Positions 20,976 through 21,403 of a stretch of DNA of 64,000 bases are shown piece after piece (within the stretch, counting starts at the first letter, position 1; each line of letters begins with the position of its first letter). The translations under genes and the position numbers were made by a program. The notes under the pieces were generated by a model. The model did no database searches. It was not told the DNA's origin and worked only from the letters and a program-made list of their open reading frames with translations. Source of the stretch: Amphiscolops sp. MND2022 (lineage: Eukaryota); contig OZ076409.1 in the NCBI GenBank assembly GCA_964187785.1, positions 48,610,001 to 48,674,000 on the forward strand, read 5' to 3'.

Positions 20976-21403
20976 CAACAAATCTTTCTAAGCCACGGCT
21001 CTGGCGAGACTCTGCGGACATCAAATGCAAACCTAACATTTTGCGTCGCAGCAGACGGAAAAATGACAATCACATTTGCGAGAAAATTATGTGAACAGAA
21101 AATGGATTTCCAAAATTTCGTAAACCAATCAAAACCCTTCGTTGGATCGGTTTTACCCTTTTGGAATAACGAAGCCAATCGCTTCATCTATGGACTAGTT
21201 GCAAAAAAAGGTGTTACGAAAAAATTAGACCCGAAGATTTTCGTAGTTGCATTGAAAATCTGTTCGGACACGCACAACAAAACAATATATCTGCAATTTC
21301 AGTAGCCAAAATTGAAGTTGGCTTAGACAACATCAGCTGGAAAGAAGCGTTAGACATCATTCGTAACACGTTCGATTATGGACATATTAAAGTTGAGATT
21401 GTG
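20976..21403 (+). other. TARG1/OARD1 (Poa1p-like) macrodomain within Pol
   Basis: FCVAADGKM...RFIYGLVAK then, after a frameshift in the A-run at ~21203-21209, KRCYEKIRPEDFRSCIENLFGHAQQNNISAISVAKIEVGLDNISWKEALDIIRNTF. This matches the family pattern RYIYYLITK...MPRIGCGLD-L-W---I---F. Confidence 0.8.

Follow-up and report, generated by a model that had tools for sequence, protein, structure and literature searches.

Why does a retrotransposon polyprotein carry a domain of the kind that removes ADP-ribose, and what has become of that domain? The question is raised by a stretch of 64,000 nucleotides from Amphiscolops sp. MND2022 (contig OZ076409.1, positions 48,610,001 to 48,674,000; hereafter the window, whose positions are counted from its first letter), for which a reading of the sequence alone had proposed a TARG1/DarG-type macrodomain fused into Pol between the protease and the reverse transcriptase (RT). 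The host of the domain is a Ty3/gypsy LTR retrotransposon with an env-like gene that occupies 16286-36278 (19,993 bp) and possesses the LTRs, the target-site duplication (TSD), the gag gene and the protease-RT-RNase H-integrase order of that group. Its parts are the following.

16282-16285 and 36279-36282: target-site duplication GTTG, 4 bp, flanking the element
16286..18666, + strand: 5' LTR, about 98% like the 3' LTR, with internal 192-bp tandem repeats
18670..18686, + strand: primer-binding-site-like TGG stretch, 3 bases past the 5' LTR
18709..20107, + strand: gag (PF03732, E 2.2e-5), broken by a frameshift near 19580
20095..20101, + strand: TTTAAAC slippery-type heptamer, within the gag/pol overlap
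20218..20505, + strand: aspartic protease with DTGA (PF13650, E 1.4e-3, below cut-off; model against EIAV protease, Z 9.1)
20506..20972, + strand: spacer of 155 aa, with a frameshift near 20875
20973..21403, + strand: TARG1/OARD1-class macrodomain, with a frameshift in the A run 21203-21209
21404..21736, + strand: acidic linker of about 110 aa, from macrodomain to RT
21737..23096, + strand: RT and RNase H (PF00078, E 1.5e-16; PF17919, E 9e-26), with stops at 22088 and 23025 and a frameshift near 22520
23913..25682, + strand: integrase (H2C2, rve, p58 C-terminal) and tail, with stops at 24015 and 24675
30534..32755, + strand: env-like fusion glycoprotein gene (PF24664, Monjiviricetes_fusion, E 2.8e-20), in pieces and broken by stops
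33173..34027, + strand: TRAF/meprin MATH-domain ORF (PF21355, E 1.2e-21), adjoining the 3' LTR upstream
34016..36278, + strand: 3' LTR, about 98% like the 5' LTR

The 192-bp tandem repeats form four units in the 5' LTR (17329-18060) and three in the 3' LTR (35134-35672), and a search for tRNA genes found none in the 64-kb window. Since pol is read in the -1 frame relative to gag, which ends at 20107, and the overlap holds the TTTAAAC heptamer, a -1 frameshift probably produces Gag-Pol; a stimulating fold 3' of the heptamer was not clearly better than in shuffled sequences (z -1.5). The spacer also occurs in relatives that have no macrodomain and is therefore older than the latter. In a three-domain model its beta-rich core (approximately 20584-20841) gave a weak match to the dUTPase fold (VIA Z 8.6-8.7, rmsd 2.3-2.7, 80-82 residues); Pfam returned no dUTPase match for the spacer, and the modelled resemblance may be treated as a lead only. 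The MATH-domain ORF, which has a coiled-coil-like stretch upstream of its domain, may be a decoy for host immune signalling and thus a second counter-immune cargo. Between pol and env lie two paralogous orphan ORFs (28254-28709 and 29496-29981; 28% identical, E 5e-20), neither with a Pfam family, and these flank a 62-bp tandem array at approximately 28749-29279. Elsewhere, the window contains several long ORFs that match no Pfam family (385, 378, 359 and 218 aa) amid scattered 33-bp repeats at 730-8998, a separate integrase core fragment at 40593-41324 (PF00665, E 1.9e-7) that likely belongs to another element, and a repeat of about 1 kb in three related copies (13744-14425, 47294-48356 and 52493-53620; one of them inverted and two separated by 5.3 kb), which may represent the ends of a further element.

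The sequence-only reading had made the domain continuous with Pol by repairing homopolymer-type frameshifts, and the fusion was borne out, as the intact 1821-aa relative P0125 aligns to the window in four collinear pieces. Three Pol frameshifts were found, each at an A run (approximately 20875, 21203-21209 and approximately 22517-22524); they may be assembly slips, and P0134 is also frame-shifted near the A run of the macrodomain. The frameshifts are, however, only part of the damage, because four in-frame stops that had gone unmentioned (22088, 23025, 24015 and 24675) hit RT, the RNase H region and integrase. Sequencing error as the sole cause of the broken Pol is ruled out by these stops, and the copy in the window is dead and makes no Pol. 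The proposed place between protease and RT holds as an order of domains, but the 155-aa spacer intervenes on the protease side, so that the macrodomain starts near 20973.

Even in this decayed copy the identity of the domain can be traced. Its 3' half (21206-21409) matches human TARG1 (4J5Q) among PDB sequences (E 6.4e-4), and the profile search that had been proposed as a check returned Pfam Macro at E 2.6e-4, with 21.3 bits lying slightly under the curated cut-off of 22. The 5' half alone matched nothing among PDB sequences, and DUF7908, a candidate for it, was dropped because its Pfam score was at chance level. The macrodomain stretch of the relative P0001 matches human TARG1 at E 3.6e-11 (query residues 19-143), TARG1 being the only one to pass E 1e-3 by sequence, and that of P0016 does so at E 1.2e-25. 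For the structure we took P0123, a naturally occurring protein of 410 aa from the subfamily of the window, and modelled it from a 40-row alignment (mean pLDDT 74.5, pTM 0.43); TARG1 was the best match of the model both in Foldseek (E 1e-10, TM 0.85 to 4J5S) and in VIA (Z 19.5, rmsd 2.0, 140 residues), followed in the latter by DarG (Z 18.5). The domain is thus a member of the macrodomain superfamily by fold and by profile and, as had been read from the sequence, of its TARG1/OARD1 (ALC1-like) class, with TARG1/DarG as nearer neighbours than MacroD, viral Mac1 or macroH2A. At E 0.01 Pfam overlooks the domain in the intact proteins P0125, P0002, P0027 and P0223, and therefore its silence on a given Pol is no guide to absence. 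Human TARG1 (OARD1, C6orf130; 4J5Q, 4J5R, 4J5S and 2L8R) remains the nearest known system by sequence and fold, with equivalents of Lys84 and Asp125 shared. The DarG macrodomain (5M3I, 5M31 and 5M3E) is of the same fold class and carries its catalytic lysine in the equivalent position (PMC9967889, excerpts), but its identity to the family domain is just 14-16%, and neither a DarT-like partner nor the DarG C-terminal domain was found by Pfam in the ORFs of the element or in intact Pol.

Presence in related elements had been named as a point on which the proposal would stand or fall. Searching for homologues brought up 149 longer proteins, and the top match among the best 120 was P0001, an uninterrupted Pol of 1821 aa with 92% identity; P0125 and P0130 are further members of 1821 aa, and in intact relatives macrodomain and Pol share one reading frame. 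Among 108 proteins spanning spacer to RT, drawn from 246 collected, the domain is present at the same place in 93 and absent in 15, proportions taken from rows that are not independent and from a sample that favours macrodomain-bearing relatives, since the search query held half of the domain. The gap from spacer to RT measures 291-324 residues with the macrodomain versus 124-142 without it (203 in one protein). Because several of the 15 relatives without it have a long uninterrupted Pol, the domain is dispensable.

Was the domain acquired once or repeatedly within the family? A search of 50%-clusters returned mostly family fragments and five longer distant Pol relatives, which served as outgroups lacking the macrodomain. 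In the RT/RNase H tree (28 chosen rows), two groups with the domain and two branches without it join in an unresolved fork, with the five more distant relatives also lacking it, and constraining the 17 macrodomain-bearing rows to one clade was not rejected (p-AU 0.3), a result that is compatible with such a clade and no proof of it. In the tree of the macrodomains themselves (37 domains), all 18 family rows fall into a single clade (100/99 support), separate from the macrodomains of other retroelements, of arthropod DNA ligase 3 and of an RNA-virus replicase, and the branching inside it mirrors the RT/RNase H tree. From these trees, a single capture followed by vertical descent is likely, being the simplest reading.

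Residue numbers and the set of site residues used here follow excerpts of PMC6397177. A macrodomain match was present in 150 family proteins, of which 114 are near full length, many of these being decayed copies. Lys84 is retained in 110 of the 114, Asp125 in 106, Gly123 in 107, His32 in 101, Cys122 in 100 and Gly121 in 91; the alignment of family copies that the sequence-only reading had called for hence indicates that the GCG loop is the usual state of the family, and most members read GCGLD, as TARG1 does. Position 121 is also Ala or Ser in other retroelement macrodomains. The pattern TKx(30,35)Px[IL]GxGxD, as published in PMC6397177 (excerpts), is matched by 68 of the 114. Between P0002 and P0145, nine of nine site residues are identical against 59 of 135 other positions (44%; P 0.0009), with some of the nine being structural as well. 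Besides sitting in a retrotransposon Pol, the family domain differs from TARG1 at two positions: the adenine-binding Asp20 of canonical TARG1 hydrolases is replaced by Ser or Thr in 112/114, and Ile44 by Phe in 111/114, Asp20 being kept in 17/19 macrodomains outside the family. With both changed family-wide, ADP-ribose may be bound in another way even by the canonical members; a candidate substitute for Asp20 is an acidic residue close by, within a short insertion.

TARG1 attacks ADP-ribose through Lys84 and releases it through Asp125, with acidic residues and thymidine as targets (PMC9967889, excerpts), and through the same two residues clears ADP-ribose from the RNA bases uracil-N3 and guanine-N1 (bioRxiv 10.64898/2026.03.31.715305, excerpts). 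With moderate confidence, we favour the reading that a TARG1-class macrodomain, probably captured once, serves in Pol as an eraser of ADP-ribose against tagging by the host, and that this function has been weakened or lost in the subfamily of the window. TARG1 as the best match by sequence and by fold, the fixed position, the single clade and the retention of the site likely speak for an eraser. The domain would enter the particle as part of Gag-Pol and is predicted to strip ADP-ribose added by the host, presumably by its PARPs, from the RNA, the new DNA or the proteins of the element; its place directly ahead of RT would suit the cleaning of the template. The Lys84/Asp125 chemistry would operate in subfamilies whose site is preserved (P0002, P0005, P0016 and P0020 types), and an anti-ADP-ribosylation role is plausible for those in which all nine residues are kept.

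The subfamily of the window presents a different picture. The sequence-only reading had recorded that LVAK and GLD are retained and that EVG and LTFC replace the GCG loop and LAHC, and all four motifs do read so in the window, where equivalents of Cys33, Lys84, Gly123 and Asp125 are retained and those of His32, Ser35, Thr83, Pro118 and Gly121 are altered; both catalytic residues are present in the subfamily as a whole. EVG and LTFC are, however, private to this decayed copy, which bears eight changes absent from all four relatives compared, and are not properties of the working element: the closest relatives read EDG in all six that cover the loop and LAFC in seven of seven, with LVAK and with Thr replacing the loop-1 glycine. 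EVG as the functional state is ruled out, since the closest relatives read EDG. The substitutions of the subfamily comprise Gly121 to Glu and Cys122 to Asp in the phosphate loop, His32 to Phe and Gly43 to Thr in loop 1, and a change of Thr83; the window copy, P0123, P0124 and P0133 additionally have Pro118 changed to Ala. Unlike TARG1, the subfamily breaks the published pattern at Thr83 and Gly121, where P0001 and P0125 have Ala and Glu (PMC6397177, excerpts).

The macrodomain of this subfamily has also evolved fast. In relative-rate tests it accumulated 33 changes versus 6 in the sister P0002 (P 1.5e-5), and 29 versus 8 and 29 versus 7 with other outgroups; no excess for the subfamily appeared in the spacer or in RT. 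Branch lengths for subfamily and sister are 1.07 versus 0.19 in the macrodomain and 0.042 versus 0.059 in RT/RNase H. Between the window copy and P0125, 13% of macrodomain positions differ, which is similar to the linkers and tail (P 0.67), against only 1.6% in RT (P 6e-6), and among five members 19 of 144 columns vary in the macrodomain versus 10 of 250 across the protease and the spacer (P 0.001). Six of the nine site residues are kept, including both catalytic ones, a retention with P 0.014 in the comparison with P0145 and P 0.10 in that with the sister P0002. With the phosphate loop, loop 1 and Thr83 changed, and with variability on a par with that of the linkers, the domain of this subfamily is most probably a remnant that is relaxed, weak or devoid of catalysis, and its in-frame place inside Pol would account for its persistence. 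A binding-only variant had been suggested before; these comparisons favour relaxed constraint more than a proven binding-only role.

Retention of six site residues with both catalytic ones nevertheless fits activity retained in the subfamily and counts against a remnant. We consider it unlikely that the subfamily domain is still a working hydrolase, perhaps with a new substrate, and that its long branch records adaptation in an arms race. Cys33, Ser35, Lys84, Gly123 and Asp125 outlast approximately 1.07 changes per site, the model shows the TARG1 fold at pLDDT values mostly in the range 78-91, many of the substitutions among subfamily members are conservative, and the lineage of P0027, with two of nine residues kept, provides the contrast of a fully lost site. 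Such a hydrolase would nonetheless carry an acidic pair in its phosphate-binding loop and would have dispensed with the loop-1 glycine, lost in all relatives seen; moreover, the domain is as variable as the linkers, and the retention of its site relative to the sister subfamily is not significant.

Returning to the remnant that we prefer for this subfamily, it is not the only one, as two further lineages have been eroded separately. The P0027 type, besides keeping two of nine site residues, has Glu in the slot of Gly123, a change that prevents binding in TARG1, and in the P0189/P0223 type the macrodomain branch is long and the loop altered. Such independent erosion on three lines of descent (P0125, P0027 and P0189/P0223 types), together with the family-wide changes of Asp20 and Ile44, would also be expected if, throughout the family, the domain acted within Pol without catalysis, as a reader or an RNA-binding module that assists in placing RT on the genomic RNA, comparable to coronavirus Mac2/Mac3. 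There is precedent in Mac2/Mac3 themselves (PMC6397177, excerpts), and TARG1 contacts RNA via a basic surface (bioRxiv 10.64898/2026.03.31.715305, excerpts). We regard this as quite improbable, because distant subfamilies with 44% identity elsewhere keep the nine site residues and the window-type domain carries a net charge of just +2.

How unusual is a macrodomain ahead of RT? That macrodomains had been noted in LTR elements before is correct: fish epsilon-like endogenous retroviruses, which are reverse-transcribing elements with a captured macrodomain too, have macrodomain genes (Basta et al. 2009, cited in PMC4977317, excerpts), described there as additional ORFs in retroviruses and not inside a Ty3/gypsy Pol. 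Searching with the family domain brought up two unrelated gypsy Pol proteins bearing a macrodomain, and a search with one of these gave 130 matches, the best 120 of which are mostly gene models from two beetle genomes. In 121 proteins among the matches listed, the macrodomain lies after the integrase C-terminus (112), after RNase H (3) or in no telling context (6), and none of these 121 has it ahead of an RT, in agreement with the earlier impression that the position is unusual; as the search leans to its own query, the position is uncommon in this sample, which does not imply uniqueness. Two beetle gene models with a protease-macrodomain order have no RT and were not counted as the same position. 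The other Ty3/gypsy Pol macrodomains (P0249, P0405-P0409, the beetle models P0410 and on, P0252 and P0522) resemble those of the family in their class and their in-frame fusion to Pol, but differ in their place after integrase or RNase H, in mostly keeping Asp20 and in falling outside the family clade.

TARG1-type macrodomains were also seen between ligase and BRCT in the DNA ligase 3 proteins P0247, P0248 and P0250 (one of them named as a copepod protein), in P0251, a protein without a name, and in P0253, a virga-like virus replicase that has this type instead of the usual viral Mac1; the last two each have nine of nine site residues. These fusions bear on whether an active eraser would serve defence at all. 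It could be a housekeeping enzyme that removes the marks left by DNA-repair PARPs from intermediates of reverse transcription and integration, which would agree with the presence of the same kind of domain in arthropod DNA ligase 3, a repair setting, and with its fusion mostly to integrase in the other retroelements (112/121 among the matches listed). We find this very doubtful, since the RNA-virus replicase P0253 has the domain without a DNA stage, and since repeated gain, erosion and fast change would fit conflict better. RNA viruses deploy macrodomains against host PARPs, and an eraser directed at host tagging is the reading that we retain for the retrotransposon family.

In the open-licence literature, we found neither a description of a TARG1-type domain inside a Ty3/gypsy Pol nor one of the position ahead of RT and of repeated erosion, and no relevant passage on macrodomains was found in PMC4402516, PMC12583693 or PMC11299033. 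A macrodomain ahead of RT adds a new position to those at which retroelements have repeatedly taken up such a domain. ADP-ribosylation has been tied to the silencing of L1 through SIRT6 and KAP1 (PMC4695847, excerpts), but as described there this is a chromatin route, which lends no support to direct tagging. It can be conjectured, although the chances seem slim, that animal hosts mark retrotransposon RNA or cDNA with ADP-ribose inside the particle and that an eraser tethered ahead of RT cleans the template, TARG1-type domains having been captured independently at no fewer than three positions in Pol, and the eroded subfamilies being either retuned in the course of an arms race or free-riding on their sisters. 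Repeated capture of TARG1-type domains into Pol suggests that hosts may aim ADP-ribosylation directly at the RNA, the cDNA or the enzymes of retrotransposons, and the family studied here provides a natural series, from the full site through the half-eroded one of the window subfamily and the lost site to Pol proteins with no domain at all.
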